Origin: an uncultured bacterium | GTDB lineage: Bacteria > Patescibacteriota > Saccharimonadia > Saccharimonadales > Saccharimonadaceae | Length of the DNA: 64,000 nucleotides | Assembly: GCA_938030735.1 (NCBI GenBank) | Contig: CALHIM010000011.1 | Coordinates: 173,480-237,479 of the forward strand | Reading direction: 5' to 3' | Shown here: in pieces, positions 1 through 64,000 of the stretch | Layout of the letters: each line of letters opens with the position of its first letter | How positions within the stretch are numbered: the stretch's first letter is position 1 | Position numbers and translations under genes: made by a program | Notes under the pieces: model-generated | Told to the model about the DNA's origin: nothing | Databases searched by the model: none | What the model saw: the letters and a program-made list of their open reading frames with translations, nothing else

Positions 1-1
1 T

Positions 2-391
2 AATTCAGTGAGCGCAGTCTTACCAAAAGCTGGAACTTATAATTATAGCCAAATTCAAGCTTATATTTCAAAAAATACAATTGGCGGTGAGGTTATTAAA
101 GAAGACGCTAAAATTAAAATTTTAAATGGTACGAATTATTCGGGATTAGCGGCTCAAGAACAGAAAAAGCTTGAGAAAGAAGGCTTTAATATTCAGGATA
201 TTGATTCTGCACCAAAGCGAGACTATGCTAAAACTAAAATTTATTATGTAAAAGAAGATTCGAAAACCGCAACAATTAAAAAACTTGAATCTAAATATTC
301 AACTAAAGCTGAAAAATTACCATCAGAATTATCAAAAATAGGAGAAGGTTCAGATATAATTATTTTATTAGGTGAAGATAATGGCAATTAA
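2..391 (+). CDS. LytR_C-domain protein, C-terminal fragment (5' end outside window)
   Basis: The frame is open from the window edge. KIKILNGTNYSGLAAQEQKKLEKEGF...TKIYY fits the LytR_C domain pattern as I remember it. Confidence 0.5.
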   Translation, partial: NSVSAVLPKAGTYNYSQIQAYISKNTIGGEVIKEDAKIKILNGTNYSGLAAQEQKKLEKEGFNIQDIDSAPKRDYAKTKIYYVKEDSKTATIKKLESKYSTKAEKLPSELSKIGEGSDIIILLGEDNGN

Positions 392-731
392 TTTGACTAA
401 AAAACAAGTTGAACTATTGAATTTTATAGAAGTTTTTATTGAAGAATCTGGTTATAGCCCAACATATCGCGAAATTGCTCGTGGTATGGGCTATAAATCT
501 GTTGCAACGGTAGCAAAGCATATCGATAATTTGGTTTTAATGGGAAAAATAACTAAATCTGATGGTGGTGAAGCTCGTTCGATTTCTATTAAGAAACAGA
601 TATCGGAACTTTCTGGCGATGAAAAAAATATTCATGATTTTTTAGTTAAGAAGCGAGACTTTTACGCCGAAAATAATCAAATCGAACAAGCTAGAAAAAT
701 TGATGATGCAATTCTGACTTTGTGGTATTAG
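381..731 (+). CDS. LexA-like N-terminal winged-helix DNA-binding protein without S24 peptidase domain
   Basis: ORF 372..731 trimmed to ATG 381, 5 nt after AGGTGA (370-375). LTKKQVELLNFIEVFIEESGYSPTYREIARGMGYKSVATVAKHIDNL is a typical LexA DNA-binding domain. At 116 aa there is no Ser/Lys protease half. Confidence 0.6.
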   Translation: MAINLTKKQVELLNFIEVFIEESGYSPTYREIARGMGYKSVATVAKHIDNLVLMGKITKSDGGEARSISIKKQISELSGDEKNIHDFLVKKRDFYAENNQIEQARKIDDAILTLWY

Positions 732-775
732 AATATTGAAAAAATAAAGTGTTTATGTTTTAATGATAATTAGTA

Positions 776-1717
776 ATGGATATTTTTAAGAGTTTTGAAA
801 AATTTATAACAGGATTTTTAGATTATGACTGGTTCGAACCAATCACAATTATTCTTATTGCAGTTTTTGCGAGTTTTTTATCGCGTAAAATTATTGATTT
901 CGCTTTTAGTGTTCGTAAGAAAACTAAAAAAATAAAGCGCTCCGAAGAACGTTTAAAAAGAAATGAAACAATTTCGAAAATTGCAAAAACTACAATTGAT
1001 ATTGTTATCTGGATGACTGCGGCGATAAACTTTCTTAGCTCAATTGGTGTTAATGTTGCGTCTTTAATGACGGGTGCTGGTTTAATTGGTGTCGTGGTTG
1101 GTCTTGGTGCTCAAACGACAACGCGTGATATTTTAGCAGGATTTTTTATTGTTGGCGAAAATCAATATCGAGTTGGAGATACAATTGAGATTATGGTTGC
1201 TGGAAGGTTAATCTCGGGGAAAGTTGAAAATATTTCTTTACGAATTACTCAGGTTCGTGATGGTGATGGAAAAGTTCATACAATTCGAAATGGCGCAAGC
1301 GAGGCTGTGACAAATCTTTCTTTTAAATATGCTAATGTTAATTTAATGTTTGGTGTATCTTATGATACGGATATCGATGTTTTGGAAAAGGTGATAAATA
1401 ATGTTGGGCTAAAAATGCTTGAAGATCCGGAATTGAAAAAAGATATTATTGAGCCAATTGTATTCGTACGAGTGAATAAATTCTTGGATTCCTCGATGGA
1501 AATTAAGTGTTTAGGAAGGGTAAAAGCTGGAAAACAATGGAATGTTGCCGGAATTTTTCGGCGGGAAATCAAAAAAGCTTTTGATGAAAACGATATTATT
1601 TTGCCTTATCCACAAATGGTCATTCATGATGTAAATCGAATTACTGCTAAAATGAAAAATTCAAAAGCTCGCACTCGCCATCAAAAACATTCATCTATAA
1701 AACAAGTTAAAAAATAA
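776..1717 (+). CDS. small-conductance mechanosensitive channel (MscS family)
   Basis: N-terminal TM helices followed by an MscS beta-domain pattern (TTRDILAGFFIVGENQYRVGDTIEI...GKVENISLRITQVRDGDGKVHTIRNG). Confidence 0.8.
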   Translation: MDIFKSFEKFITGFLDYDWFEPITIILIAVFASFLSRKIIDFAFSVRKKTKKIKRSEERLKRNETISKIAKTTIDIVIWMTAAINFLSSIGVNVASLMTGAGLIGVVVGLGAQTTTRDILAGFFIVGENQYRVGDTIEIMVAGRLISGKVENISLRITQVRDGDGKVHTIRNGASEAVTNLSFKYANVNLMFGVSYDTDIDVLEKVINNVGLKMLEDPELKKDIIEPIVFVRVNKFLDSSMEIKCLGRVKAGKQWNVAGIFRREIKKAFDENDIILPYPQMVIHDVNRITAKMKNSKARTRHQKHSSIKQVKK

Positions 1718-1740
1718 AACCCTTTTTGAAAGGGTTTTTA
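1717..1740. terminator. bidirectional intrinsic terminator
   Basis: Stem AACCCTT (1718-1724) pairs with AAGGGTT (1730-1736). An A-run precedes it and a T-run follows. It lies between convergent genes. Confidence 0.7.
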
Positions 1741-2061
1741 TCTGTAGCGGTTATTTGGACACTTGCCGTATTGCCCATTTTCACAAAATGAGCAATTTTC
1801 TTTTTCACAGGCTGATAAATCATCTGATCTATGTGCGAAAGATTGACTTTTTACGGTTTTAAAGTTTGAGTCAATTCTCTGAAAAATTATACTTTGGGCT
1901 TGAACTTTTTTGCGCGAATAGTTACATTTGGCAAAATACATTTTAAAAATTTTATAAATTGCAGAAGAGTAGCCTTTTTCAGCTTTGATAAGTAAATCTT
2001 CTGGAATGTCTAATTCGGCTATTCGTTTTAGAAATTTGTGCGAAACTCTAATTTTTACCAT
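1738..2061 (-). CDS. hypothetical small protein with C-terminal Cys cluster
   Basis: 107-aa ORF divergent from arcA. The C-terminus reads CEKENCSFCENGQYGKC (CX4CX2CX7C). I recognise no family. Confidence 0.5.
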   Translation of the reverse strand: MVKIRVSHKFLKRIAELDIPEDLLIKAEKGYSSAIYKIFKMYFAKCNYSRKKVQAQSIIFQRIDSNFKTVKSQSFAHRSDDLSACEKENCSFCENGQYGKCPNNRYR

Positions 2062-2199
2062 ATTTTCACCTCCAAAAATGTACTAAGATGCTATTATTAT
2101 ATAATTTTTCTAATAAAAAGTCAATAAAGTTAAATTGTTTGATAAAAGATAATCTTTATGGTAAAATTAAATCATAAACATAAAATAAAGGGAGGGAAT

Positions 2200-3450
2200 A
2201 TGGGTGAAAAACCGATTCAAGTTAATAGTGAAATCGGAAAACTCAAAACCGTAATTTTACATAGACCAGGAAAAGAACTCGAAGGGTTGACTCCGGATTA
2301 TTTGGAACAGCTACTCTTTGATGATATTCCATATTTGGAGGTTGCGCAAGCTGAGCATGATGCTTTTGCGGAAACTCTTCGAAATCATGGAGTTGAAGTT
2401 CTTTATCTTGATCAATTAGCAGCAGAATCACTTTATAATGATGAAATTAAGTGGCGATTTATTTCTGATTTTGTGCGAGCTTCGAAACAAGGTGAACGGC
2501 ATGTAACGCACGCTTTGATGCGTTATTTAGGAGAATTTGAGCCACTCGAGCTTGTTCGAAAAATTATGGCGGGTGTTAAAAAAGATGAGATTAAAACTGA
2601 TGAAGATGAAAAATCTCATTTGAACTATTATTTTAAGAGTGATTATCCATTTTTGCTCGACCCAATGCCAAATCTTTACTTTACTCGTGACCCAGCAGCT
2701 GCAGTTGGAAATGGCTTAACAATTAATAAAATGCGATATCCAGCTCGTCGACGCGAGAGTTTGTTTATGGAATATATTATGCGCTATCACCCACGATTTG
2801 CAGCAAAAACTCCTGGTGGTGAAGTTCCGGTTTGGTTTGATCGCTATAATAAATTCAATATGGAAGGTGGCGATGAACTCGTTCTTTCGAAGAATGTGAT
2901 GGCAATTGGCGTTTCACAACGAACAACTCCTGAAGCAATCGAAAAAGTTGCTTCGAAATTGTTTGAATTTTCAGATTTTAATAAAATTTTAGCAATTCAA
3001 ATTCCAGTTTCACATGCTTTTATGCATCTTGATACTGTTTTCACAATGATTGATTATGATAAATTTACAGTTCACCCAGAAATTTTAGACAAAGATGGTG
3101 AATTGAATATTTACGTTTTGGAAGATTCTGGCATTCCAGGTCAGCCAAAAATTACACATCGCACAAACTTGAAAGAAACTCTAGAGGAAGTTCTTGGTCT
3201 TGACCATGTAACTCTGATTCAATGTGGTGATGGTGATCCAATCGCTGCAGCTCGCGAACAGTGGAACGACGGCTCGAATACTCTAGCAATCGCTCCAGGT
3301 GTAGTTGTAACTTATGATCGAAACTATGTAACCAACAGAGCTTTGCGTGAAGCTGGTGTTGAAGTGATTGAGATTCAGGGAGCTGAGCTTGGTCGCGGAC
3401 GAGGAGGTCCACGATGTATGTCAATGCCAATTTGGAGAGAGGAGATTTAA
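2200..3450 (+). CDS. arcA: arginine deiminase
   Basis: ORF 2158..3450 trimmed to ATG 2200, which follows GGAGGG (2191-2196). End-to-end ADI-like sequence including the catalytic-Cys region GGPRCMSMP. Confidence 0.9.
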
Positions 3451-3452
3451 TA

Positions 3453-4442
3453 ATGGCATTAAATTTGAAAAATCGAAATTTTCTAACACTTTTAGATTTT
3501 GCACCAGAAGAAATTCGCTTAATGCTTGATGTTTCGCATGAGTACAAACGTTTAAAACGAGCTGGAATTGCTCACAAAATTCACGAAGGCAAACAAGTTG
3601 CTTTGCTTTTCGAAAAAACTTCAACCCGAACTCGAACCGCTTTCACTGTGGCGGCTCGAGATTTGGGAATTCACCCGGAATTTTTAGGTAAAGATGATAT
3701 TCAAATGGGTAAAAAGGAATCAATTAAAGATACAGCAATTGTGCTTGGTCGCTCATTTGATGGAATTGAATTTCGCGGTTTCGATCATTCAACTGTTGAA
3801 GAACTTGCAAAATATGCTGGTGTGCCTGTTTGGAATGGTTTGACTGATATGTATCACCCAACTCAAATTTTGGCAGACTTTATGACAATTGAAGAACATC
3901 TTGGATACCTAAAAGGTGCTAAATTAGTGTTTGTTGGTGACGGACGCAATAATATGGCGAACAGCTTGATGATTGGCTCAGCTAAAATGGGCGTTGATTT
4001 TCGAATTGCTGCCCCAAATAATCTTCATCCAGACCCTGCTTTGGTTGAAAAATGCCGTGAAATTGCTCGTGAAACTGGTGCAAAAATTACAATTACAGAC
4101 GACCTATATGGTGCCGCTCACGGCGCAGATTTCATCTATACTGATGTCTGGGTATCAATGGGAGAAGAAGATAAATTCGAAGAACGAATCCATCAATTAC
4201 GTGGCTTCCAAGTAAATACGGCACTTCTTCATGCAACTGGAAATCCAAATGTGAAATTTATGCACTGTTTGCCAGCCTTCCATGATTTAAATACAAAAAT
4301 TGGAAAAGAAATTTTCGAAAAATATGGATTGAAAGAAATGGAAGTTACTGATGAAGTCTTTAACTCAAACGCTTCAATTGTATTCGACGAAGCTGAAAAC
4401 CGCATGCACACAATTAAAGCGGTTATCGCTTTAACTTTGTAA
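3453..4442 (+). CDS. arcB: ornithine carbamoyltransferase (catabolic context)
   Basis: ATG 3453 lies 2 nt after the arcA stop. OTCase motifs are present: STRTR ([12 protein letters not shown]), HPTQ and HCLP. Confidence 0.9.
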
Positions 4443-4457
4443 TTTTAGGAGAAGAAA

Positions 4458-6125
4458 ATGGCTATGAAAAAAGATGCAGATAAAACTGCTTCAAAAAAGG
4501 TTAAAAAGGTTTCGAAAAAGCTAAAAGTGTTTAAATCGCCGTCAGCTTTTAGTGTTTTATTCATTATTATTGCAATAATGGCTGGCTTAACTTGGCTCAT
4601 ACCAAGTGGTCGTTATGAACGATTAGAAGACGGAAAAATTAAATCCAACAGTTACTCGCAAACTGAAAAACGCTTGAAAGTTGTTGAAGAAGTTAAAAAT
4701 CCAAAAACCGAAATTTCAATTTCTGACGCAGAAAGCAAAGGCTATAAAAATGCGGCAAGCAATTTTAAAAAAGCTGAAGAAGAGAAAAAAGAATATTACA
4801 TTAATCTAAAGCAAGGATTTTGGGATATTTTCTTGTCTCCAATTTATGGAATGGCTAAGAAACTTGATGTAATCGTATTCATCCTGATCCTTGGTGGGTT
4901 CTTGGGTGTTGTGATGAAAACCGGCGCACTTGATTCTGCAATTGGTGGTTTACTCAAAAAAATGAAAGGCAAAGAGAAGTGGATTATTCCAGTTTTAATG
5001 ACACTTTTTGCGATTGGCGGAACTACTTATGGTATGCAAGAAGAAGCGGTGGCGTTTTATGCATTAATCGTACCAATTATGATTGCTGCTGGTTATAATT
5101 CAATGACTGCCGTAATGGTAATTGTTCTTGGTGCTGGTTCAGGTGTTTTAGCTTCAACAGTAAATCCATTCTCAACTATTATTGCTGCAAACGCTGCTGG
5201 TGCAGAATTATCGAAAATATTATTGCCTCAGTTTATAATTCTAGTTGCATCTTTAGCTGCTTCGATTATCTTTACGATGCGATATGCTGCTAAAGTTAAA
5301 GCTGGTGAATATGCTGAAGACTCTAAAGGAAAACCAGCAGTTAAAGCAATTGATGCTTCAAAAGTTCCAGAATTTACACTTGAGCGAAAATTTGTAATGG
5401 GAATTTTTGGGCTAACTTTCCTTGTGATGATTATGTCACTTGTTCCTTGGGAAGATTTGCATGTAACATTCTTTAAAGACTGGCACGAATGGCTCGCAAC
5501 TTTGCCTATTGTTGGTGGAATCTTCGGATTTGAGCATGCTGTTCCGTTCGGCTCTTGGTATTTTAACGAAATCTCAGCGCTGTTCTTAATCTCAACAATA
5601 ATGATTAAAATTCTTTATCATGAGGAATTTAAAAAAGATGATGTTTCTGTAACAAACACTTTCCTCGCTGGCTCGGCAGATCTATTGAGTGTTGCTTTAA
5701 TTATTGCGGTTGCTGCAGCAATTGGTGTTTTGATGCAAGCTGGCGGAATTCAAGATACGATTGTCTATTGGGGTGAAGAGCTTCTTCGAAAAGTTCCATC
5801 GCAGATATTTGGTGTTTTAGCTTACATTTTCTATATCCCAATGTCATTTATCATTCCATCATCTTCTGGTTTAGCAGAAGCTACAATGCCAATTATTGCT
5901 CCTGTTGCAGATTTAGCTGGCTCAACCAAAGAAATTGCTGTTGTTGCATTTGCAACTGCATCTGGACTTCTTAATATGATTGCCCCTACAATTGCATCAT
6001 TAATGGCTGGTTTAGCGCTTGCAGGCGTGCCTTATAAAAACTGGGTTAAGAGAACTGCTCCATTGATGACTATCTTAACTTTAATTAGTCTTGTTGTAAT
6101 CGTTGTGATGGGATTCTTAAAATAA
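4458..6125 (+). CDS. YfcC/DcuC-type membrane carrier, putative arginine/ornithine antiporter
   Basis: AGGAGA SD upstream. Polytopic protein with a YfcC-like core (LGGFLGVVMKTGALDSAIG...GGTTYGMQEEAVAFY). Its position directly after arcAB suggests the substrate. Confidence 0.65.
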   Translation: MAMKKDADKTASKKVKKVSKKLKVFKSPSAFSVLFIIIAIMAGLTWLIPSGRYERLEDGKIKSNSYSQTEKRLKVVEEVKNPKTEISISDAESKGYKNAASNFKKAEEEKKEYYINLKQGFWDIFLSPIYGMAKKLDVIVFILILGGFLGVVMKTGALDSAIGGLLKKMKGKEKWIIPVLMTLFAIGGTTYGMQEEAVAFYALIVPIMIAAGYNSMTAVMVIVLGAGSGVLASTVNPFSTIIAANAAGAELSKILLPQFIILVASLAASIIFTMRYAAKVKAGEYAEDSKGKPAVKAIDASKVPEFTLERKFVMGIFGLTFLVMIMSLVPWEDLHVTFFKDWHEWLATLPIVGGIFGFEHAVPFGSWYFNEISALFLISTIMIKILYHEEFKKDDVSVTNTFLAGSADLLSVALIIAVAAAIGVLMQAGGIQDTIVYWGEELLRKVPSQIFGVLAYIFYIPMSFIIPSSSGLAEATMPIIAPVADLAGSTKEIAVVAFATASGLLNMIAPTIASLMAGLALAGVPYKNWVKRTAPLMTILTLISLVVIVVMGFLK

Positions 6126-6126
6126 A

Positions 6127-6555
6127 ATGAAACAGATTTCGAAATATCAAAAGGAATCTTTTCATCGAAAATTAACCTCAATTTTGGTGATTGCTGTACT
6201 GGTAGCTGTAGTTTTTGCAGTAGGTTTTGTTGTGAAGCTTCTCGATTTTACACTACCAGTTGCTCACCGAAATATTTCGAATAATAAAAATCAAAATCAG
6301 TCTTCGAAAAATATAACAATTTCAGGAAACGTAGTTTGTCTTTCATTAAAAAAGGGTAAAACTGATAATTCAAATCCAAATAAATGTAAAGTTGGAGTTG
6401 TTGATTCTAAAGGCCAAAAATATGCTGTTTCTGGTGGAAGTAATTTAAATCTTTACGGAGAAGCTAATTCAAACGGAGTTGAGGTTTCTGGTGAGTTTAT
6501 TCCTGCCGGTGAAGATGAAACTTATGATATTGTTGGCACAATCAAGCGTTCGTAG
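6127..6555 (+). CDS. hypothetical membrane-anchored protein
   Basis: 142-aa ORF with one N-terminal TM helix, then an Asn/Gly-rich, probably beta-type domain. Confidence 0.5.
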   Translation: MKQISKYQKESFHRKLTSILVIAVLVAVVFAVGFVVKLLDFTLPVAHRNISNNKNQNQSSKNITISGNVVCLSLKKGKTDNSNPNKCKVGVVDSKGQKYAVSGGSNLNLYGEANSNGVEVSGEFIPAGEDETYDIVGTIKRS

Positions 6556-15673: not shown

Positions 15674-16687
15674 ATGGCGATTTTAGTAACTGGTGGTGCA
15701 GGATTTATCGGTGCCCACACTTCAATTGAACTTCTTGAAAATAATGAAGAAGCTATAATTATTGATAATTTTCTAAATTCGAAACCTAAAGCTTTAGAGC
15801 GAATTCGTAAAATTTCGGGCAAGGATTTTAAGTTTTATGAAGTTGATATTTTAAATAAAGATGAGCTTCGAAAAATTTTTCAAGAAAATAATATTGAGCA
15901 AGTGATACATTTTGCAGGCTTAAAAGCAGTTGGCGAAAGTGTTGAAAAACCACTTGAATATTATAAAAATAATATTCAAGGAACGATTTCTCTTTTGGAA
16001 ATTATGCGAGAGTTTAACGTTTATGATATTGTTTTTTCTTCGAGCGCAACAGTTTATGGCGATAAAAATCCAGTTCCTTATCGAGAAGAAATGCCTTGCG
16101 AAACAGCAACGAATCCTTATGGATACACTAAAGTTGTGATTGAACATATTTTGAAAGATCTAGCGAAGGCTGATGCGCGCTGGTCGATTACAATTTTGCG
16201 ATATTTCAACCCAATTGGTGCGCATGAAAGCGGTTTAATTGGTGAAGATCCACAAGGAATTCCAAACAATTTGATGCCGTATATTTCTCAAGTTGCTATT
16301 GGAAAACGAGAAAAACTTTCAATTTTTGGCGATGATTACGAAACTCCTGATGGCACAGGAGTACGTGACTATATTCATGTCGTAGATTTAGCTAAGGGTC
16401 ATTTGAAAGCATTAGAGAATAACCGCAAGAATGGTGGCGTTAAAATTTATAATCTCGGTTCAGGCTTGGGAATAAGCGTTTTGGAGCTAGTTCGTGCTTT
16501 CGAAAAAGCCTCTGGTAAAAAGATTCCTTTCGAAATAACTCCGCGCCGTGCAGGTGATATTGCATTTTGTTATGCTGATGTTGCTAAGGCTGAAAAAGAA
16601 CTTGGTTGGAAAACTGAAAAAACAATTGAAGAAATGTGCCGAGATTCGTGGAATTGGCAAAGTAAAAATCCGAATGGATTAATCTAA
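15674..16687 (+). CDS. galE: UDP-glucose 4-epimerase
   Basis: Rossmann motif TGGAGFIG, catalytic YGYTK, and GalE-like length and C-terminus. Confidence 0.85.
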   Translation: MAILVTGGAGFIGAHTSIELLENNEEAIIIDNFLNSKPKALERIRKISGKDFKFYEVDILNKDELRKIFQENNIEQVIHFAGLKAVGESVEKPLEYYKNNIQGTISLLEIMREFNVYDIVFSSSATVYGDKNPVPYREEMPCETATNPYGYTKVVIEHILKDLAKADARWSITILRYFNPIGAHESGLIGEDPQGIPNNLMPYISQVAIGKREKLSIFGDDYETPDGTGVRDYIHVVDLAKGHLKALENNRKNGGVKIYNLGSGLGISVLELVRAFEKASGKKIPFEITPRRAGDIAFCYADVAKAEKELGWKTEKTIEEMCRDSWNWQSKNPNGLI

Positions 16688-16777
16688 GAATATTAAAAAA
16701 GTTTGTTTTCGAACAGACTTTTTTATTTTTTTAAAAAAGTACTTGACTTTTTAAGCTACCTTGTATAACATAGAAGT

Positions 16778-17119
16778 ATGAAGGAACAAGAAAGTATTGA
16801 AAAATATGCTTCACAAATTTCAACCCAGATGCGAAAAGGTTTTATGGCGTTTTGCGTGCTAAAAGTTTGTGCAAAAAAGCCAGTTTACACCAGCGACATC
16901 ATTAAGGAATTGCGTGAAGCTAAAATGGTTGTGGTCGAAGGCACAATTTATCCGTTGCTATCAAGACTACAAAAAGATGGATTATTAAGCCATGAATGGC
17001 AAGAAAGTGAGCAAGGTCCGCCTAGAAAATATTACTCAATAACTGAATTTGGCGCTAGTGTTTGTGAAAAGGTTAGCGAAGAAATCAGCAAATTAAATAA
17101 AACAATCAGCAAACTTTAA
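16778..17119 (+). CDS. PadR-family transcriptional regulator
   Basis: 113-aa winged HTH (EGTIYPLLSRLQKDGLL...PRKYYSIT). Confidence 0.8.
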   Translation: MKEQESIEKYASQISTQMRKGFMAFCVLKVCAKKPVYTSDIIKELREAKMVVVEGTIYPLLSRLQKDGLLSHEWQESEQGPPRKYYSITEFGASVCEKVSEEISKLNKTISKL

Positions 17120-17127
17120 GGAGAAAT

Positions 17128-18708
17128 ATGAAAGAAATTACAAGAATTCATTTGGCGAAAATTCCTTACGAAATTGAAATTTATGCCAAAAAGAGGCTTG
17201 AAAAATATCTAAAAGATTTAAAAATCTACTCTGGCGATGAAGATATTTTCGAAGATGTGGAAATTCGAATTACTGAAATTCTAGCAGAACTTGGCGTAAA
17301 AGAAGGCGGAGTAATCACTGAAAAAGAAATTTCAAAAATTGAGGCTCAAATTGGCTCGCCAGAAGTGTTTCAAGATTTGAATTTTGAAAGTGAAAATGAA
17401 GAAATTCGCATTCCGAAAACTTCAAAAAAGCTATTTCGAGACGAACAAAATGGAATGATTTCAGGTGTGGCAGCAGGATTAGCACAATATTTGAGAATTG
17501 ATACGGTTTGGGTTAGATTAGCTTTAGTGGCTATGTTTTTTGTGAGTTTTGGTACAATTGTTCCAATTTATATTTTATCGATTCTTATAATTCCAGCGGC
17601 AAAAAATGCTAATGATATTTTGCGACTTCGTGGTGAAGTTATTACAGCAAGTGCAATTCGAGAAGTTAACGAAGAATATGATTTCGAGAAAAATGCAGCT
17701 CGAAATATGAAAATTGCTCGAATTTTTGGGATAATTTTTGGAATTTTTACAGTTTTTGCTTTTCTTGGTGGAATCCTAGCGATGTTTTTTGGAAACTGGG
17801 CATTAATGCAAATTGGCGAAATGGCTAATTTTGCCAACGCAAAGAGTGCTGCAACTGGTATAGTAATTTCAGCAAATATAATGGGAATTTCTTATTTGAT
17901 TTTTACGGCTTTTATTGCAAAAATGCTGTTTAAATTGAAAGCTTCGAAAATTGATATTATAGCAATTATTGTTTCGGTGGTAGTTGCTTTAGGTGGAATT
18001 TTGGGATCGATTTCTTTTACATCAATTTTACGCGATAAAGCTAATGAAAAGGTTTCGAAAAGTTTAGTCTCTGAACAAATTAAAATTAATTCTGAAAAAA
18101 TGGAAAGTGTTAAAAAACTGAAAGTTGATTCTTCAGTTTCTGTGTTCTATCACATTTCAGATGAGCGAAAAATTGAATTTACGCATATGAATTTTCGAAA
18201 ACATAATTTGAAAGTTGATTTTGAAGGAGAAACTTTGAAATTGAGTTTAAATAATGTTCCGCAAAATCTATATTTTGGTGGATTAGGCTATGAAGAAATT
18301 CATATTTATGGCCCAGAACTAAATGAAATTGATGTAACTTCAAATTCAAATGTAAATTATTTTGCGAAAGATGCCGAGAATATGAAAGTAAAAATGAATG
18401 GCGGTTCAGTTTATTTTGAAAATTCAGCCAAAATTACAAATTTAGAGATTTCGAAAGGTGAATATGGCGTGTTTTCAGGAAAACACATTGATGTTTTGAA
18501 CTTAACATTAAATTCAAATAGCGGAAGTGTTGAGCTAAATAATATTGAAAATGCAAATGTTAAAACTAAAAATTGTAGTTTTAATAGTCCAAAAGTTACT
18601 CGTTTGAAAGCTCGTGCAAAAAATGTAAAAGTGAATGATTATGATTTTAACGAGAACACTAAAGGCCAATGCTTTTATCTTGAAAGTTTAGATAGGGATG
18701 AATTTTAA
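17128..18708 (+). CDS. PspC-domain membrane sensor-like protein with N-terminal DUF1700/HAAS-like helices and C-terminal beta-rich domain
   Basis: PspC motif MISGVAAGLAQYLRIDTVWVRLALV, several TM helices, and a repetitive C-terminal domain reminiscent of DUF4097. AGGAGA SD 8 nt after the padR stop. Confidence 0.6.
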   Translation: MKEITRIHLAKIPYEIEIYAKKRLEKYLKDLKIYSGDEDIFEDVEIRITEILAELGVKEGGVITEKEISKIEAQIGSPEVFQDLNFESENEEIRIPKTSKKLFRDEQNGMISGVAAGLAQYLRIDTVWVRLALVAMFFVSFGTIVPIYILSILIIPAAKNANDILRLRGEVITASAIREVNEEYDFEKNAARNMKIARIFGIIFGIFTVFAFLGGILAMFFGNWALMQIGEMANFANAKSAATGIVISANIMGISYLIFTAFIAKMLFKLKASKIDIIAIIVSVVVALGGILGSISFTSILRDKANEKVSKSLVSEQIKINSEKMESVKKLKVDSSVSVFYHISDERKIEFTHMNFRKHNLKVDFEGETLKLSLNNVPQNLYFGGLGYEEIHIYGPELNEIDVTSNSNVNYFAKDAENMKVKMNGGSVYFENSAKITNLEISKGEYGVFSGKHIDVLNLTLNSNSGSVELNNIENANVKTKNCSFNSPKVTRLKARAKNVKVNDYDFNENTKGQCFYLESLDRDEF

Positions 18709-18721
18709 TTAAAGGAGGAAT

Positions 18722-19408
18722 ATGATTGAAGTTCGAAATATTTCAAAAATTTATGGCAAAAAGAAGAATCGTTTTCAAGCATTAAAAGATGTAAGTTTCA
18801 AGATTGAAAATGGTTCAAGCGTGGCGATTATTGGGAAATCGGGAAGTGGAAAATCAACACTGATTCATGCAATGAGTGGTCTAGACGCTCCAGAAAAAGG
18901 CGAAGTTTTAATGGATGGAGTAAATATTTTATCAATGAATCAAAAGAAGATTGATAAATTTCGTTCGAAAAAAATGGGATTTATTTTTCAAAGCTTTTTT
19001 GTGCAGGGAAATGAAACTTGTTTCGAAAATGTGAGTTTGCCACTTGAAATTGCTGAAGAGCCAATTTTTCGAAGGAAAGAAATTGTAGAAGACGCCCTAA
19101 AAGCGGTTGGTTTGAAAGATAAAATTAAAACACCAGCTCGTGACCTTTCGGGTGGGCAAAAACAGCGCCTTGCGATTGCGCGAGCAATTGTAAACTCGCC
19201 AGAAATAATTTTTGCAGATGAACCAACGGGAAATTTGGACTCTGCAACTAGTGAAAAAATTGAAAAATTACTTTTTGAATATAATAAAAAGTCTGGTGCA
19301 ACGCTATTTATTATTACTCATGATGAAGAATTGGCAGAAAAATGTGATATTCGGATTCGAATAAAAGATGGTGAAATAGAGCATATTGAAGGAGTTAAAA
19401 ATGCGTAG
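18722..19408 (+). CDS. ABC transporter ATP-binding protein (MacB/LolD-like)
   Basis: Walker A GKSGSGKST, signature LSGGQKQR, Walker B IIFADEPT. Confidence 0.9.
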   Translation: MIEVRNISKIYGKKKNRFQALKDVSFKIENGSSVAIIGKSGSGKSTLIHAMSGLDAPEKGEVLMDGVNILSMNQKKIDKFRSKKMGFIFQSFFVQGNETCFENVSLPLEIAEEPIFRRKEIVEDALKAVGLKDKIKTPARDLSGGQKQRLAIARAIVNSPEIIFADEPTGNLDSATSEKIEKLLFEYNKKSGATLFIITHDEELAEKCDIRIRIKDGEIEHIEGVKNA

Positions 19409-43917: not shown

Positions 43918-43955
43918 TTAGCACTCTTGACTTGTGAGTGCTAAAAGCGTATAAT
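43918..43955 (+). promoter_or_regulatory. perfect CIRCE operator fused to the dnaK promoter
   Basis: TTAGCACTC-TTGACTTGT-GAGTGCTAA (43918-43944). The -35 TTGACT (43927-43932) lies in the CIRCE spacer, then a 17-nt spacer, then TATAAT (43950-43955). Confidence 0.9.
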
Positions 43956-46008: not shown

Positions 46009-46143
46009 TTCGAAAATCCACCTTTCGAAAGGTAAAAATGCTCAGTTTGAACTGGGCATTTTTGCGTATTGATTTTTTTAATTTTATCTAGTATAATTAA
46101 TTTGTGCTCACCCGATGCTCGCACTTTTAGAAAGAGGTATTCT

Positions 46144-51298: not shown

Positions 51299-51430
51299 TA
51301 CCGGACTTTTTGAAAAATCTCGCGCATTAGCGCGTTTTTTTATTACTAAGCGAAGCTCGGAGTAAAGGCGAAAATAATCTATACTGCTTTAGTATATTTT
51401 ATGATATTATATAAAGTGAGAGGAAAAATA

Positions 51431-51961
51431 ATGATTAGAAACGAAGATTTTACAATAAATTATTTAGACAAAATTATTTTTGCGTCCGAGAGACATACTA
51501 TTGATGAATGGCTAGGTGCATTTAAAAAACTTTCGGAAATTATGAACGAGCTTAATCTTGATACCGATCTTTATATGCATAGTATGGGTGTAGAAAGCTT
51601 AAAAATTAATTTTATAAAGAATGAATCTCTAATTATCAATGAAGTAACGCGTTTAAATTTTTGCGCAAAAAGAGTTCTTGATTTGTCTATTAAAATTGTT
51701 CAAATATCTTCCAGAAATGAATTCAAATACGATGATGTTTCGGGGTTGATAAGGGAGGCATGGTGGGAGTTAATTTCACTCTTTGACTATTCTTCAGATT
51801 TATATTTAAATATTTACTCACTTTGTTTGTTTAACAATCTTGCTTTAGTCTTGGAGAAATCCGTGAAAATAGTTGCCAATAAACTTTCGGGTAGTCCGTC
51901 AATAGCTCCATATGATAATATGGAGGAAGTTGAGATTATTTCAAAAAATCAAGATTTTTAG
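51431..51961 (+). CDS. hypothetical protein (176 aa), AT-rich orphan
   Basis: ORF 51401..51961 trimmed to ATG 51431 after GAGAGG. No recognised domain. Confidence 0.45.
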   Translation: MIRNEDFTINYLDKIIFASERHTIDEWLGAFKKLSEIMNELNLDTDLYMHSMGVESLKINFIKNESLIINEVTRLNFCAKRVLDLSIKIVQISSRNEFKYDDVSGLIREAWWELISLFDYSSDLYLNIYSLCLFNNLALVLEKSVKIVANKLSGSPSIAPYDNMEEVEIISKNQDF

Positions 51962-53425: not shown

Positions 53426-54682
53426 ATGCTTAAAAAAATATTAAAACCTTTTTTAAAAATTCGAAATTATTGGCAATATATTTCTTTTGATGAAATGGCT
53501 GTTTTGTATGTTTCGAAAAATATGCGAGTTTTCGCAACAAAATTAGCAAGTACTTTTAGTCTAATTTATATCTATAAGTTCACGCATTCAATCTGGATTG
53601 TTCCTATTTGTATTTTAATTTATTACATTGCAAAATTTGTAGGCTCGATAGTTGCTCTTTTCTATATTTCAAAAAATGGCCCAAAGCACGGAATGCTACT
53701 TGCAAATATTCTGTTTATTCCAGCTTTAGTTTTAATGGCTTCAATGGGAATTTTTGGTAGGGAAATGGGTTTGATTGTAGCCCTTATTAGTGCAGTTTTT
53801 AAAGGAATATCGACTTCGGTTGAAAATATCTCGTATAATGTTGATTTTTCGAAAGCTAAAACTGCTAAAAAAGTTGGAAAACAGCTTGGAATTTCCTATA
53901 TTTTGGAGCATATTTCGAGTAGTATAACTCCTGCGGTTGGTGGATTTCTTGCGATATTTTTTGGAGTTGAGAAGCTTTTTGTGGTGTCTTCGGTGATTTT
54001 AGTTTTGACAACAATTCCACTTTTAACAACAAAAGAGCGAGTGAAGCCTGTTCGAAAAATAAGTTTTCGAGGTTTTCCATGGCGAAATTATAAACATCTT
54101 TTGGTTATTTGTTATAGTTGTGGAATGGCTTGGAATTCTTTATATATTTGGAGCTTTTTTGCGCCGGTCTTTTTACTAAAAGGTATTAATGCTTATGGTT
54201 CAGCTGGAGTTTTGTCTTCGATTTCTTCGATTGCAGCTTTGGTTTCAGCTTTTGTTTATGGTAAAGTGATTGATAAAAATAAAGAGCGAGGACTTTTAAA
54301 AATCGGGGCTGTTTTTATGGGGTTAGTTTTTTCGCTTAGGATTTTTATTTCGTCGAATCCGCTTTTACTTGGAATTTTAGAAATTATTGCTGCAATGGCG
54401 ATGAATGGCTTTAATATGGCGAATTTCAAAGGTTTGTATGGTGAAGCTGATGAATCCGGAATGCGCATGCAATATTTGTTTTTGTATGAAATTGGAATGA
54501 ATACTGTTTCGGTTATTACTATTTCTTTATTTGTGATTTTATTTTTTGCGCTTCAAGGAATGGACCCATCAGGTGAATTATCAATGAGGATTATGCTTTT
54601 GATCTCGAGTTTGTCAATTTTGCCAATGGTTTTTACAAACTATCGGATTTATCGAAATAAAAAACGCCAATTCCAAGAATGA
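53426..54682 (+). CDS. MFS-like polytopic membrane transporter
   Basis: 418 aa with about 12 hydrophobic segments. Confidence 0.45.
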   Translation: MLKKILKPFLKIRNYWQYISFDEMAVLYVSKNMRVFATKLASTFSLIYIYKFTHSIWIVPICILIYYIAKFVGSIVALFYISKNGPKHGMLLANILFIPALVLMASMGIFGREMGLIVALISAVFKGISTSVENISYNVDFSKAKTAKKVGKQLGISYILEHISSSITPAVGGFLAIFFGVEKLFVVSSVILVLTTIPLLTTKERVKPVRKISFRGFPWRNYKHLLVICYSCGMAWNSLYIWSFFAPVFLLKGINAYGSAGVLSSISSIAALVSAFVYGKVIDKNKERGLLKIGAVFMGLVFSLRIFISSNPLLLGILEIIAAMAMNGFNMANFKGLYGEADESGMRMQYLFLYEIGMNTVSVITISLFVILFFALQGMDPSGELSMRIMLLISSLSILPMVFTNYRIYRNKKRQFQE

Positions 54683-56124
54683 TGAAACCTAAAGCTCATA
54701 TTCACCGATTTTATCTTAATTTTGTATTTTTTGGTGGAATTATTTTTGGCACTATCTTCTCGGTTTTTTCGAAAAATACAAGTCTTAAATCAATTGTCTG
54801 GCTAATTTTAGCAATAATTTTATTCTTATTCTCTTGGATTTTTGCTCGAAAGTTTTGTTTAATTTTAGCCTTAATCGCTGGAATTTTGCTTTCTTTGTGG
54901 CGAGGATCAGTTTATAATTTCGAAAATTTAAAAATTGCACAAAATATTAAAAAAGATGTAATTGTTCGAGCTGTTGTTCTTGAAGATCCAGATCTTAAGG
55001 AAGATGGAAGCTTAAAAATTCATGCAAAAGTTATAGGAATTTCGAATGAACAATTTAATGGAAAGGCTTTTATTAGCTTAAAAACAAATCAAAAAATTCG
55101 TAGGAGCGATGAGATTTTAGTAAAAGGGAAAATTTCTGAAGGTTTTGGTGATTTTGCGATTTCAATTCATCGAGGAAGACTTATAAAGATTAGCCCAAAG
55201 AGTGATTTAATCCGCGATATGCGAGATTCTTTCGCTGAAGGGGTTCGAAAATTTATTCCTTCACCAGAGGTTGATTTGGGTCTTGGCTATCTGTTAGGTC
55301 AAAAAAATTCTTTGCCGGAGGAGATTTCTAAAGCCTTAACAATCACAGCTTTAACACATATTGTGGTTGCGAGTGGATACAATTTAACTGTTTTAGTGAT
55401 GGCGGCCCAGCGAGTTTTTAATAAAATTTCAAGAAAGATAGCTTTATTTGTGGCGATTTTACTAGTTTTAGGATTTGTTTTTGTGGTTGGATTTACGCCG
55501 TCGATGATTCGTGCAGGGATCGTGGCAATTTTTGGTTTAATTTTATGGTATTTTGGTAGAAAAACCCAAGCGTATTTTCTTCTAACTTTTGTAGCGGCGA
55601 TAACCTTAATATTCGAACCCTCAAACTTACTTAATCTAGGCTGGCAATTATCGTTTGCTTCATTTTTTGGTGTTTTGATTCTTTCGCCACTATTGCAAAA
55701 AATCTTTTTCGAAAAGCCAGAAAAGCTAAATTCTGCTTTAAAATTATTTTTCGAAACTTTTAGTGCTCAAATTGTAACACTTCCGCTGATAATTTTTACT
55801 TTCGGTGCGGTTAGCGTAATATCAATATTTGCAAATATGCTAGTTCTACCATTTGTGCCAAGTGCGATGCTTGCAACTTTTTTAACGGGAATTTTTGCAA
55901 TATTCTCACCAATTGCTCATTTTTTTGGCTTTATAGCAGAATTAATTTTAAAATATTCAATTTTTATAATTGGTGAATTTTCAAAAATCAAAGGAGCGCA
56001 GTTAGAAGTCAGCTTTGGCTTTAGCGAAATGCTAATTTGCTATTTTTGCTTATTTTTGGCAGTTATTTTGATTAATTTTAAGCTTCGAAAGGATCAAATG
56101 CTCAATATTTTGAATGAATCCTGA
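54679..56124 (+). CDS. comEC: ComEC/Rec2-family DNA internalisation channel (short, no beta-lactamase-like domain)
   Basis: DUF4131-like N-terminus plus competence domain (LGLGYLLGQKNSLPEEISKALTITALTHIVVASGYNLTVLV). 481 aa. Confidence 0.75.
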   Translation: MMKPKAHIHRFYLNFVFFGGIIFGTIFSVFSKNTSLKSIVWLILAIILFLFSWIFARKFCLILALIAGILLSLWRGSVYNFENLKIAQNIKKDVIVRAVVLEDPDLKEDGSLKIHAKVIGISNEQFNGKAFISLKTNQKIRRSDEILVKGKISEGFGDFAISIHRGRLIKISPKSDLIRDMRDSFAEGVRKFIPSPEVDLGLGYLLGQKNSLPEEISKALTITALTHIVVASGYNLTVLVMAAQRVFNKISRKIALFVAILLVLGFVFVVGFTPSMIRAGIVAIFGLILWYFGRKTQAYFLLTFVAAITLIFEPSNLLNLGWQLSFASFFGVLILSPLLQKIFFEKPEKLNSALKLFFETFSAQIVTLPLIIFTFGAVSVISIFANMLVLPFVPSAMLATFLTGIFAIFSPIAHFFGFIAELILKYSIFIIGEFSKIKGAQLEVSFGFSEMLICYFCLFLAVILINFKLRKDQMLNILNES

Positions 56125-62140: not shown

Positions 62141-62202
62141 AGATTAACTCGAAATATACAACCATTATAACGCATATATTTCGAAAAATCAAGCAAAAAA
62201 AT

Positions 62203-62844
62203 CTATTTTGAATATTTTTTTCGCCATTCTTCAATTTTGGCGTGATGCCCGCTTAACAAAACTTCTGGAACTTTCATTCCGCGGAAATCTGCTGGTCTTG
62301 TAAATTGTGGAAATTCCAGATTATCACCGTCTGAATAACTTTCAATTTCGGCTGATTTTTCGCCACCAAGTACGCCGGGAATTAGGCGTACTATGCTATC
62401 GATTATTGCCATTGCGGGAATTTCGCCACCAGTTAAAATAAATTTACCAATACTTATTTTTTCGTCAACAATTTCGAAAATTCGTGAATCAAACCCTTCA
62501 TATCGTCCGCATAAAATAATTAAATCTTCGCCGGAATTAGCTTTTTCTTGGGCTTTTTCTTGATTCCAGATATTCTCGCTTGGGGTCATTGCGATAATTT
62601 TTGCATTTGGTGAATTATTTTTTGCAAACTCGACTGCTTCGAAAAGAGGCTCTGGTTTTAAGAGCATTCCATCTCCTCCACCATAGGGAATGTCATCAAC
62701 TTGCTTGCGTATTCCAATACCAAAATTACGTAAATTAATAATTTCGAAAGAAACTACATTTTGATTTTGTGCTTTCCACATCATTGCATTATTTAAAACT
62801 GGTTCAAACATTTCAGGGAAGAGAGTGATCACTTGAATTTTCAT
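62203..62844 (-). CDS. trmD: tRNA (guanine37-N1)-methyltransferase
   Basis: MKIQVITLFPEMFEPVLN N-terminus and the C-terminal knot region IPAMAIIDSIVRLIPGVLG. Confidence 0.9.
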   Translation of the reverse strand: MKIQVITLFPEMFEPVLNNAMMWKAQNQNVVSFEIINLRNFGIGIRKQVDDIPYGGGDGMLLKPEPLFEAVEFAKNNSPNAKIIAMTPSENIWNQEKAQEKANSGEDLIILCGRYEGFDSRIFEIVDEKISIGKFILTGGEIPAMAIIDSIVRLIPGVLGGEKSAEIESYSDGDNLEFPQFTRPADFRGMKVPEVLLSGHHAKIEEWRKKYSK

Positions 62845-63048
62845 ATTAATTTATTTTACCATTTTTTAGATTTTTTTGCAAAATGAATAAACTAAAAATC
62901 TAGCCAAGATATTATGGCCAGATTTTTAACAAGTATAAGCTCTCAAACTTTCCTCAGTTTGCTCGCATAGAGCTTTGACTTTTTTGTTTTTCCGCAGTTC
63001 TTTCGAAATCTAAAACTCCACAACAGATTTCGAACTGAACTGTTTATA

Positions 63049-63402
63049 TTATAACGCAATATCGTCTAATTCTGCAAGCTCTTTTCGAGTTTGTTCTGCG
63101 AAAGTATTTGTGTTTTCCACAGGTGCATCTGTTGAATTTTCCACAGCTTCAGTTTTTTCTTCGCTATCGCTAATTTTTAGATTATAATGAGCATTATTTT
63201 TTAGCGCCAGAGCTCGAAGAAGCGCACGAAGGCTTTGCGCAGTTGCTCCACGGCGACCAATAATTCGGCCCAAGTCTTCTTTATTCACAGTCAAAGTTAA
63301 TAAAACACCTTTTTCATCAATTGTGCGCTCAACTTTTACGTCTTCCGGATTTTCAACTAAATTTTTAACGATATATTCAACAAACTGTTGGTCTATTGTC
63401 AT
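63049..63402 (-). CDS. KH-domain RNA-binding protein (YlqC/UPF0109-like) with acidic C-terminal extension
   Basis: LGRIIGRRGATAQSLRALL contains the GxxG KH motif. AAGGAG SD. Confidence 0.75.
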   Translation of the reverse strand: MTIDQQFVEYIVKNLVENPEDVKVERTIDEKGVLLTLTVNKEDLGRIIGRRGATAQSLRALLRALALKNNAHYNLKISDSEEKTEAVENSTDAPVENTNTFAEQTRKELAELDDIAL

Positions 63403-63427
63403 TTTTCAGATACTCCTTTTATTCAGT

Positions 63428-64000
63428 TTATGCTTTAATTGTATCACTTTTCGAACGTTTTTTCAACCATTCGATTATAATAAAAATTATAGTAAAAATT
63501 ATCATTAGTATTGCGTAAAGTTCGAAAGCACGCCCTGAAAGTACACCGATTTCAATCAGTGGTCTAAAGAGAATTGCGGTTACTATAAACGCACTGATTG
63601 ACCAAATAATAAGAAGGATTCTCCAGAAATTAAGTGGTAGGCAGGCGCGGATTACTGAGAGCATTCCGATCGAACCGAGTAAATAATACGAAACTGTCGA
63701 AACTTCTTGAGGGATCCAGCCGTTAAGCGAACCCCAAATTCGTACGAAAATAACCGAGAATACCACCATTAGCGCACTAGGCAAGGCCATTAGGAGTGAT
63801 TTTTTAATAAAATCTTTTTCAACAGGTTGAATATTTTTTTCGAAAGTGAGAACAAAAGGTGGGAAGCCTTCAACAAACTGGTCGATCAATGTAACTTGAA
63901 TTGGGATGAACGGGAAAATCAAGAGAAGATTTTTATCAAATAGTAAAGCGCTTAAAATACAAATAATTGCCAAAATGAACGAATAGATCGTTTTGATCAA
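63428..64000 (-). CDS. P-type cation-transporting ATPase, C-terminal membrane part (5' part outside window)
   Basis: The frame is open to the window edge. IPIQVTLIDQFVEGFPPFVLTFE resembles the TM6 region of P-type ATPases, followed by four more TM helices. Confidence 0.6.
   Translation of the reverse strand: MIKTIYSFILAIICILSALLFDKNLLLIFPFIPIQVTLIDQFVEGFPPFVLTFEKNIQPVEKDFIKKSLLMALPSALMVVFSVIFVRIWGSLNGWIPQEVSTVSYYLLGSIGMLSVIRACLPLNFWRILLIIWSISAFIVTAILFRPLIEIGVLSGRAFELYAILMIIFTIIFIIIEWLKKRSKSDTIKA

Follow-up and report, generated by a model that had tools for sequence, protein, structure and literature searches.

Why should one six-base palindrome recur every few hundred bases along a bacterial chromosome, inside genes and between them alike? 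The question is raised by a 64,000-base stretch of contig CALHIM010000011.1 from an uncultured bacterium (the whole of this stretch is hereafter called the window; its GC content is 34.4%). A first-pass annotation, made from the letters alone, had noted that the palindrome TTCGAA, which we take to be the BstBI/AsuII site and so a word of type II form, is roughly ten-fold over-represented there. A scan with the DnaK protein against one genome per prokaryotic species places the window in the Saccharibacteria (TM7), not in the cyanobacteria, and by exact-protein look-up its genes were matched in metagenomes from the human mouth and in several hundred assemblies, one of its proteins being indexed in 408 blocks of the collection. 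Its counterpart in ENA is contig ERZ27263369:k119_130016. On these sequence matches the host is a common human-oral Saccharibacteria species complex with a GC content of 34%; its genome size is estimated at ~0.7-0.8 Mb from a 690-kb contig and the 702-kb chromosome of a relative. The TTCGAA excess is a DNA-level, frame-blind, sequence-specific signal and not a product of coding or composition.

An over-represented palindrome in coding and non-coding DNA

By exact count the window holds 198 copies of TTCGAA, i.e. 3.1 per kb or about one per 320 bases, against 21.4 expected from composition. This 9.3-fold excess bears out the ten-fold estimate of the first-pass annotation. Two of the hand counts on which that estimate was based (18 copies in 1..6310 and 13 in 16000..19080) are right, whereas the third is slightly off, since the interval 42061..43560 has four copies inside plus one straddling its edge at 42059, not five. 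Dinucleotide-preserving shuffles (n=100) gave 47.6±6.1 copies with a maximum of 62, so that the excess is still about 4-fold when dinucleotides are kept; the order-2 Markov expectation is 78. An order-4 Markov model gives 174 of the 198 copies, and does so because pentamers already hold the signal. The octamer TTTCGAAA is more extreme, with 86 copies against 2.3 by composition (37-fold) and 9.3±2.8 in dinucleotide shuffles (about 9-fold). TTCGAA and TTTCGAAA are respectively the hexamer and the octamer with the highest observed/expected ratio in the window, and the next ranks are taken by words that overlap them, for example TCGAAA and TTTCGA. No enrichment is seen in other palindromes of like composition (AACGTT, 11 copies; ATCGAT, 18; TACGTA, 3; GAATTC, 27). 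Expressed per Mb, there are 3,100 hexamers and 1,340 octamers.

How are the sites spread? Every 2-kb bin of the window has between 3 and 10 of them, with a variance/mean ratio of 0.48 and a coefficient of variation of the gaps of 0.86 (P=0.017). This is an under-dispersed pattern, and an occupancy of about 50% in a fixed set of slots predicts exactly such evenness. The sites are uniform along genes (Kolmogorov-Smirnov P=0.92), equally dense in both gene orientations, and unrelated to gene starts, ends or strand; a gene-level role was rejected on these grounds. The density is the same outside the window, at 2.7-3.5 sites per kb in the 10 kb beyond it and in five more chromosome regions of other strains.

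Inside genes there are 184 sites, distributed over the three frames as 51/47/86. When synonymous codons were shuffled so as to keep each protein and each gene's codon usage, 62.7±6.9 sites were obtained with a maximum of 85, and shuffling of codon order gave 43.9±6.2. The encoded proteins permit TTCGAA synonymously at 416 positions and 184 of these are filled, an occupancy of 44% overall and of 46%, 48% and 41% by frame. Codon choice shifts accordingly at each of the three amino acids involved. The TTC share of Phe codons is 54% before GAA, compared with 20% of all Phe codons and 6-33% before other codons starting with G; the TCG share of Ser codons is 51% between a preceding T and a following AA, compared with 11-19% elsewhere; and the CGA share of Arg codons is 76% between TT and A, compared with 20-42% elsewhere. 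In non-coding DNA, taken as everything outside genes and tRNAs (5.8 kb, GC 25.6%), there are 12 sites where 1.8 are expected, a 6.7-fold excess (P=4e-7). The earlier reading that the motif occurs in all frames and in intergenic DNA, and that no single codon or dipeptide lies behind it, is thus upheld. The first-pass annotation had named shuffles and intergenic DNA as the checks to make, and the excess survives dinucleotide, Markov and protein- and codon-preserving controls and persists between genes.

The shape of the motif was examined with a strand-symmetrised profile of the 198 sites. This has T at -4 and A at +4 in 66% of cases, and no further information out to ±20 bases. The full 8-bp palindrome is reached by 49% of sites, and extension beyond 8 bp occurs in 29% of those, against 27% by chance. 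The core TCGA is about as frequent as expected outside TTCGAA, which indicates that the recognised unit is the 6-8-mer tTTCGAAa and not the 4-bp core. A dispersed repeat or miniature inverted-repeat transposable element was considered and rejected, there being no conservation past 8 bp. The sites and stretches that need to be named individually are as follows (ORF, open reading frame).

1..64000, no strand: 198 TTCGAA sites along the whole window, including 86 TTTCGAAA; consensus tTTCGAAa (counts, shuffles, logo)
16694..16725, plus strand: terminator-like hairpin after an epimerase gene, -12.9 kcal/mol, z = -4.4, with the TTCGAA at 16708-16713 at its tip
29003..30833, no strand: longest TTCGAA-free stretch, 1.8 kb, with small ORFs without assigned function beside tRNA-Met genes; partly strain-variable
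30834..30839, minus strand: TTCGAA in the T-arm of a tRNA-Met (ARAGORN and Rfam tRNA coordinates); ordinary conserved tRNA sequence
46020..46033, no strand: 14-bp perfect palindrome ACCTTTCGAAAGGT, arm length 7, just past the dnaK stop codon, with a second TTCGAA at 46009
59064: TTCGAA in the T-loop of a tRNA-Gln; ordinary conserved tRNA sequence

Intergenic hairpins had been stressed in the first-pass annotation, with the terminator loop near 16705 and the palindrome at 46020 as examples. Among the 14 sites not fully inside genes, three were folded and a convincing terminator was found at one. That one is the 16708 site, which does lie in a real hairpin; the palindrome ACCTTTCGAAAGGT exists as described, but it folds no better than shuffled sequence (z = -0.7). 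With palindromic extension beyond 8 bp at the chance level and a single robust hairpin among the examples folded, hairpins are not supported as a general feature of the motif, and a hairpin or terminator function of TTCGAA was rejected. The T-loops of tRNAs were likewise rejected as a source of the motif because they account for only two of the 198 sites. Within the TTCGAA-free stretch, the segment 30054-30790 is unaligned in strain L090. At 30817-31683 three tRNA-Met genes occur within 900 bases, on alternating strands and interleaved with small ORFs without family match.

Relatives, mobile DNA and turnover of sites

The relatives compared comprise 80 DnaK loci. Only two of these share the enrichment and the low GC of the window: L001 (8.9-fold), which has 95% DNA identity to the window, and L002 (8.2-fold), a sister species with 97% DnaK identity and 84% DNA identity. 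The next relative, L003 (DnaK identity 88%, GC 41.5%), has one TTCGAA where 4.5 are expected, and sister species at this distance, ~88% DnaK identity, avoid the word. Assemblies of the enriched complex include the MAGs CALAKV01 and CAURNE01 and a GenBank MAG with the locus-tag prefix Q4A27; CAYXHY01, CAURNU01 and Nanosynbacter TM7-076 are the nearest relatives without the enrichment. In 65 other Saccharibacteria loci, totalling 1.04 Mb, there are 230 copies against 282 expected by composition and 465 by the order-2 Markov model; among the long loci nine of 52 have no TTCGAA at all where 3-8 are expected, and none is appreciably above expectation. The first-pass annotation had remarked that the enrichment is the opposite of the usual avoidance of restriction sites. 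This holds: the same word is under-represented in these 65 loci (nine long ones having none), and its bias is reversed in sign in the enriched lineage and its prophage.

The contrast is sharper when only synonymous opportunities are counted. In the enriched complex 40-46% of these are occupied and they occur at 6-7 per kb. The corresponding figures are 1.7% and 4.0 per kb in L003, 2.7% and 3.4 per kb in nine close relatives, 6% and 3.5 per kb in the remaining Saccharibacteria, and 2.9% and 4.0 per kb in five equally AT-rich genomes from elsewhere in the Candidate Phyla Radiation (CPR). Peptide contexts that permit TTCGAA are therefore about 1.7-fold commoner in the enriched complex, which means that its amino-acid sequences have shifted too. 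The near-miss words TTTGAA and TTCAAA are also in excess in the window, with 194 copies against 83 expected (2.3-fold, compared with 1.2-fold in relatives), and TTCGAA, TTTGAA and TTCAAA pooled are 3.7-fold enriched.

Other loci from CPR and Saccharibacteria genomes have moderate excesses of other palindromes: TGATCA in L071 (33 copies against 7.2 expected), GCCGGC in L015 (17 against 2.7), GGCGCC in L005 (13 against 2.1), TCCGGA in L079 (14 against 2.3) and GCTAGC in L063 (26 copies). In these groups it may be common for a lineage to have its own palindrome bias, of either sign. Within the library searched, no publication was found tying Saccharibacteria or Patescibacteria to TTCGAA, uptake sequences or iterated palindromes.

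Accessory DNA is poorer in the motif. Strain-variable segments of equally low GC have 11 sites in 10.4 kb, or 1.06 per kb, against 3.09 per kb in the core (P=1.6e-5). The main mobile or strain-variable features are the following.

42104..43924, minus strand: gene for a GmrSD-family type IV (modification-dependent) restriction endonuclease, 606 aa (Pfam GmrSD_N and GmrSD_C)
51300..51960, plus strand: 660-bp insertion with a 186-aa ORF (51401-51961), following a tRNA-Leu (51212-51298); not in strain L001 (blastn); zero TTCGAA
L218-L223, ~9950-20168 of each, and L093, 1-560 (not in the window): temperate phage-like element

The GmrSD gene and a 211-aa ORF without assigned function (41459-42094) make up an island that lies between the phosphoketolase gene and dnaK and separates hrcA-grpE from dnaK-dnaJ. 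In the sister species L002 the island is missing and three small ORFs stand in its place. With seven TTCGAA in 2.5 kb (2.8 per kb), the island is the exception among strain-variable DNA. Another strain-variable island, at 20885-22680, is located 3' of a tRNA-Asn (20809-20883). The version in the window encodes a 532-aa His_Phos_1 protein; in other strains (L090-L097, ~12000-17000) the island is empty in some cases and in others has a 229-aa ORF without assigned function, and in L097 it has two glycosyltransferase genes and a short His_Phos_1 gene beside the gene for the 532-aa His_Phos_1 protein. TTCGAA density is low in the inserts of this tRNA-Asn island.

The phage-like element was located through a strain-specific insertion. 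Its genes encode a 55-aa membrane protein, RecT, a PDDEXK-FtsK fusion, a HAD_PNKP protein, an endolysin of the Amidase_5 or Amidase_2 type and many small ORFs. Members of the cluster are labelled Caudoviricetes by NCBI, and the 55-aa protein is found on 798 contigs. In six strains the element occupies six different chromosomal sites, beside cysS, a His_Phos gene, tilS, parA, aspS and uvrA, which suggests near-random, transposition-like integration. The prophage copies have 1.45 TTCGAA per kb (4.4-fold over composition), against 3.18 per kb (9.7-fold) in the adjoining chromosome. Related phages in IMG/VR have less: those whose endolysin is 80-93% identical have 1.06 per kb (3.2-fold), and those whose endolysin is 58-68% identical have 0.42 per kb (1.3-fold), three of six such loci being depleted. 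In the prophage 24% of the synonymous opportunities are occupied, and the peptide contexts, at 3.7 per kb, are unshifted. A phage of the lineage therefore shows no avoidance of TTCGAA and is halfway to the state of its host. A scan of IMG/VR for paired TTTCGAAA gave only chance matches among those listed. That close relatives show the opposite bias and that the resident phage is halfway points to a recent origin of the enrichment.

Are individual sites conserved? Following Xu et al. (PMC5861425), we compared the Jaccard index of sites for TTCGAA, for its one-off variants and for control palindromes of equal GC. Between the window and L001 the three values were 0.72, 0.59 and 0.53; between the window and L002 they were 0.40 (27/67), 0.25 and 0.18. 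Conservation at the codon level is raised inside the motif for TCG and CGA, and is not raised for TTC or GAA. The differences between strains at TTCGAA are mostly synonymous, involving TTT/TTC before GAA and TCA/TCG before AA, and 14 of the 22 site differences between the window and L001 are C/T changes at the central CpG. Polarised by L002, the window/L001 differences comprise 10 gains and 8 losses.

Gains and losses were also mapped by parsimony on a tree of nine strains (15.2 kb; four deep lineages ~5.5% apart). There were 13 gains of TTCGAA, 8 of them from TTTGAA or TTCAAA, and 26 losses, 21 of them to these same words; the tips carry 43-49 sites and the root is inferred to have had 50. 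At synonymous third positions in motif context the AT-to-GC change that creates a site occurred in 9 of 352 cases (0.026 per branch-site, against a background of 0.0129; ratio 2.0), and the GC-to-AT change that destroys one in 12 of 424 (0.028, against 0.0363; ratio 0.78, Poisson interval ~0.4-1.3). These in-context rates predict an occupancy of 47%, matching that observed. A weak fixation bias (odds ratio ~5, S ~1.6) would give a 2.0-fold gain and a 0.4-fold loss. The pattern fits such a bias, but with 9 gains and 12 losses at synonymous sites in motif context the rates are suggestive rather than decisive between selection and mutation bias, and a pure gain-rate effect may also account for them; an estimate from two genomes gave inconsistent pictures for Phe and for Ser codons. 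The density is at steady state, with fast synonymous C/T gain and loss at the central CpG, which corresponds to a weak bias per site (the odds and S given above) acting on roughly 2,500 sites per genome.

Known systems, the proposed explanation and its rivals

The closest descriptive parallel is with the highly iterated palindromes (HIPs) of cyanobacteria. HIP1 (GCGATCGC) and the alternate HIPs (GGCGCC, rCCGGy, GCsGC) are palindromes of 6-8 bp that recur 500-3000 times per Mb, in every reading frame as well as outside genes, and TTCGAA is like them in each respect. In both cases the outermost positions are the least strict (here deviations fall at the outermost positions of the octamer, the outer T/A being present in 66%), and the core is a word of the classical type II restriction-modification kind. 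The conservation ranking of motif over one-off variants over control palindromes that was reported for HIP (PMC5861425) is also that of TTCGAA. Alternate HIPs are confined to single strains or small clades (PMC4390886), and TTCGAA is as narrowly distributed, in one species complex. By the descriptive criteria of abundance, frame-independence, conservation ranking and loose outer positions, then, TTCGAA matches HIPs, and especially the sporadic alternate HIPs. The two differ in their hosts, cyanobacteria in the one case and Patescibacteria/Saccharibacteria with a genome of ~0.7-0.8 Mb in the other, and in composition, HIP words being GC-rich with GATC or GC whereas TTCGAA is AT-rich with a central CpG. 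Also unlike the situation with HIPs, the nearest relatives of the TTCGAA lineage actively avoid the word, and no cognate methyltransferase was found in the ~125 kb read for gene content (the window plus ~60 kb of further chromosome, ~1/6 of the genome). Methylated HIP1 raises transformation of Synechococcus up to 100-fold (bioRxiv 10.1101/2024.09.10.611283), and a role as an uptake sequence has been suggested for HIP1 (bioRxiv 10.64898/2026.06.24.733823).

Uptake signal sequences (USS) of Pasteurellaceae and DNA uptake sequences (DUS) of Neisseriaceae offer a second parallel. Like TTCGAA they are found genome-wide at ~1-3 per kb and within genes in every frame; protein sequences lean towards motif-compatible peptides (here 6-7 against 3.4-4.0 contexts per kb) and near-miss variants are over-represented; and core DNA is richer than accessory DNA (here 3.1 against 1.06 per kb) in a host belonging to a naturally competent group with ComEC. 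USS and DUS are, however, non-palindromic 9-12-mers with AT-rich flanks, often present as inverted pairs in terminators, whereas TTCGAA is a bare 8-bp palindrome, and they are family-wide whereas TTCGAA is limited to one species complex. TTCGAA thus resembles an uptake sequence in several respects and lacks the structure of USS and DUS. A third parallel is in Campylobacter jejuni, where work by Beauchamp et al. (PNAS, 2017) is said to have shown that CtsM and its word RAATTY bring about methylation-dependent discrimination of self-DNA in transformation. In the CtsM system the password for transformation is a short AT-rich palindrome that an orphan methyltransferase marks, and this is the mechanism that we deem most likely for TTCGAA. 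RAATTY, however, is common mainly through the AT-richness of Campylobacter, no ten-fold excess having been described for it, whereas that of TTCGAA is about ten-fold.

The first-pass annotation had listed an uptake signal, a methylation target, a nucleoid-protein site and a mutational bias without preferring any of them; the present data reduce these options but do not single one out. We propose, with a probability of about 0.4, that TTCGAA is a lineage-specific highly iterated palindrome, tTTCGAAa, which serves as a mark recognised by a sequence-specific protein of this TM7 complex, so that methylation-marked self-DNA is favoured in transformation. An allele carrying TTCGAA would gain a transmission advantage whenever cells of the lineage took up each other's DNA by natural transformation and recombined it, and this advantage would act as a molecular drive, as with uptake sequences. 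Reading of the mark would probably depend on methylation, carried out by a TTCGAA-specific (orphan) methyltransferase in the way now put forward for HIP1. Judging from the avoidance in relatives, TTCGAA-specific restriction-modification enzymes may circulate in the clade, and the lineage may have kept or co-opted a recognition module while losing the restriction activity. The pressure itself is confined to this lineage, favours tTTCGAAa throughout long-resident DNA and is balanced by decay at the CpG; the proposed transmission bias would be weak and genome-wide. The palindromic type II core, the avoidance in relatives and the lack of avoidance in the lineage's own phage together make a module of restriction-modification type the likeliest reader. 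As to transformation itself, the window contains the following gene, whose presence the first-pass annotation had rightly reported.

54679..56124, plus strand: ComEC competence channel gene (Pfam Competence and DUF4131), with 8 TTCGAA inside

Natural transformation dependent on comEC was shown in another Saccharibacterium (PMC10633639), and we infer natural competence for the window's own lineage. Transformation in Saccharibacteria, the presence of ComEC, the higher density in core than in accessory DNA, the adaptation of the proteome and the HIP1 result make methylation-marked self-DNA the best-supported reading, and self-marking linked to uptake or methylation would be the best fit to the sequence data. 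That TTCGAA is in addition the first sequence-specific self-DNA recognition signal (an uptake or transformation password) in the CPR, palindromic, probably read by methylation, recent, and an analogue of HIP1 that arose independently, is possible but somewhat doubtful.

Several observations weigh against this proposal. Known uptake sequences are non-palindromic, longer and family-wide, and the present motif appears in one species complex. Some kinds of cytosine modification would sit uneasily with a GmrSD type IV enzyme in the same genome. Among the 59 of 61 window ORFs searched (Pfam or NCBIfam), neither a DNA methyltransferase nor a Vsr gene was found, nor was one found by catalytic-motif scans of all loci or in gene tables of the ~60 kb of further chromosome, a coverage of roughly one sixth of the genome. 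If shared slots were filled independently at 50%, the Jaccard index would already be ~0.33, so that conservation above controls is no proof of site-by-site selection. Finally, losses exceed gains on the strain tree, and loss of TTCGAA is not clearly suppressed (0.78 times background, with the interval of ~0.4-1.3).

What else could produce such a pattern? In E. coli, Dcm/Vsr very-short-patch repair makes its target word over-represented through T:G-to-C:G repair and depletes the T-containing products, a modest effect. TTCGAA is like this system in that gains and losses go through C/T changes at the methylatable cytosine; it is unlike it in that the product words are 2.3-fold enriched and that the excess is ten-fold and reaches the flanking bases and the peptide composition. 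Vsr-type repair as sole cause was rejected because the product words show no depletion and the three words pooled are 3.7-fold enriched. A broader version, which we consider unlikely, is a methylation-coupled repair bias with no role in uptake, in which a cytosine methyltransferase acts together with a Vsr-like T:G endonuclease or with a methyl-directed mismatch-repair ratchet (Elhai's HIP model); near-miss words would be converted and existing sites protected, and the excess would be a functionless by-product. The predominance of C/T changes at the central CpG (14/22 differences between the window and L001, and 21/26 losses and 8/13 gains on the tree) is as this idea would have it; T-to-C gain in context at ~2 times background is the most that a T:G-to-C:G repair bias could give; the prophage in the same cell is enriched too; and each alternate HIP in cyanobacteria co-occurs with a cognate methyltransferase (PMC4390886). 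The deamination products TTTGAA and TTCAAA, however, are over-represented rather than depleted (2.3-fold, against 1.2-fold in relatives), C-to-T loss is not clearly suppressed (0.78 times background, interval ~0.4-1.3), and neither the 3.7-fold excess of the pool nor the 1.7-fold excess of peptide contexts can come from a bias confined to the two central bases. Neither a Vsr nor a methyltransferase gene was found in the ~125 kb read. Moreover, Elhai's model requires MutS/MutL (PMC4390886), and a comparative study reported both to be missing in Saccharibacteria (PMC8406219); on that finding the ratchet machinery is gone, and the model is inapplicable as written.

If instead the sites were selected one by one for chromosome function, a nucleoid-associated or chromosome-organising protein of the lineage would bind TTCGAA (compare Xu et al. 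on HIP1). The even spacing, the conservation above control palindromes and the indifference to gene starts, ends and strand are in keeping with this, but the spacing is fully covered by ~50% occupancy of slots, turnover is fast and most sites are not common to the sister species (27/67 shared), no candidate binding protein is known, and neither the avoidance in relatives nor the acquisition of sites by the prophage is explained; we regard it as improbable. The motif could also be a relic or a purely mutational signature, made by a context-specific process while GC dropped from ~42% to 34% and now drifting or decaying. We give this little credence. The enrichment does coincide with a drop in GC when the nearest relative sampled is taken as reference (41.5% to 34%), and on the strain tree there are 26 losses to 13 gains with fewer sites at the tips (43-49) than at the root (50). 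Against this, density and occupancy (40-46%) have stayed alike in three lineages that differ by up to 16% in nucleotide sequence, the window/L001 changes polarised with L002 are balanced (10 gains, 8 losses), AT-enrichment does not favour TTCGAA over AACGTT (11), ATCGAT (18) or TACGTA (3), and equally AT-rich CPR genomes have an occupancy of 2.9%. Plain context-dependent mutation bias, which the first-pass annotation had listed among its options, likewise fits poorly, since motif-compatible peptides are commoner and the conservation of sites exceeds that of controls. There is practically no chance that the pattern is an artefact of codon usage, of amino-acid or oligonucleotide composition, of a dispersed repeat or of assembly. 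The order-4 Markov prediction of 174/198 would suit an artefact, solely since pentamers contain the signal, and the artefact reading is refuted by the shuffles (63±7 with protein and codon usage preserved, against 184 observed in genes; 48±6 with dinucleotides preserved, against 198), by the 6.7-fold intergenic enrichment and by the same density in independent assemblies from many samples; nor is there conservation past 8 bp.

Hyper-abundant short words are rare, and each of the known ones, USS, DUS and HIP1, has brought to light a step of DNA uptake, recombination or repair that is sequence-specific. The role of HIP1 is a question of thirty years' standing on which the TTCGAA case bears, and the case is a useful one in that it comes from another phylum, with a tiny genome reported to be free of MutS/MutL, so that one leading model is excluded. 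Because the enrichment is young (relatives opposite, phage halfway), comparing a few sister genomes of ~0.7-0.8 Mb should pinpoint the responsible gene. If the self-recognition proposal is true, the enriched and non-enriched sister genomes would constitute a natural experiment for finding the protein that writes and reads the marks, and since Saccharibacteria are transformable in the laboratory, the uptake/methylation hypothesis is directly testable. In practical terms, genetic tools for oral TM7 could be made better if TTTCGAAA were added to the donor DNA or methylated in it, and TTCGAA is a simple k-mer marker for assigning contigs and phages from oral metagenomes to this lineage.

Other genes in the window and in related strains

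Genes of the arginine deiminase pathway, a trait described for mammal-associated Saccharibacteria, are found at two places in the window.

2158-6125: arginine deiminase, ornithine carbamoyltransferase and a YfcC-type antiporter
60999-61934: carbamate-kinase-like amino-acid kinase, 55 kb from the other arginine deiminase pathway genes

As called, the reading frames of arcA and the ornithine carbamoyltransferase gene overlap by 37 bases. Two long proteins encoded in the window are fusion-like. The one at 24179-26077 has ~300 residues without a match followed by a class I fructose-bisphosphate aldolase domain (residues 306-628); that at 21055-22653 begins with a histidine-phosphatase domain (residues 1-165) and continues for ~365 residues without a match.

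A gene for a UDG-family uracil-DNA glycosylase is located at 2723-3388 of L221, i.e. in the enriched lineage, so that the low GC does not come simply from lost uracil excision. One oral strain (L084, 3637-5340) has a large serine recombinase gene (Resolvase, Recombinase and Zn_ribbon_recom domains; GC 40%) directly 3' of mscS; its place in the window is taken by a 107-aa ORF (1738-2061).

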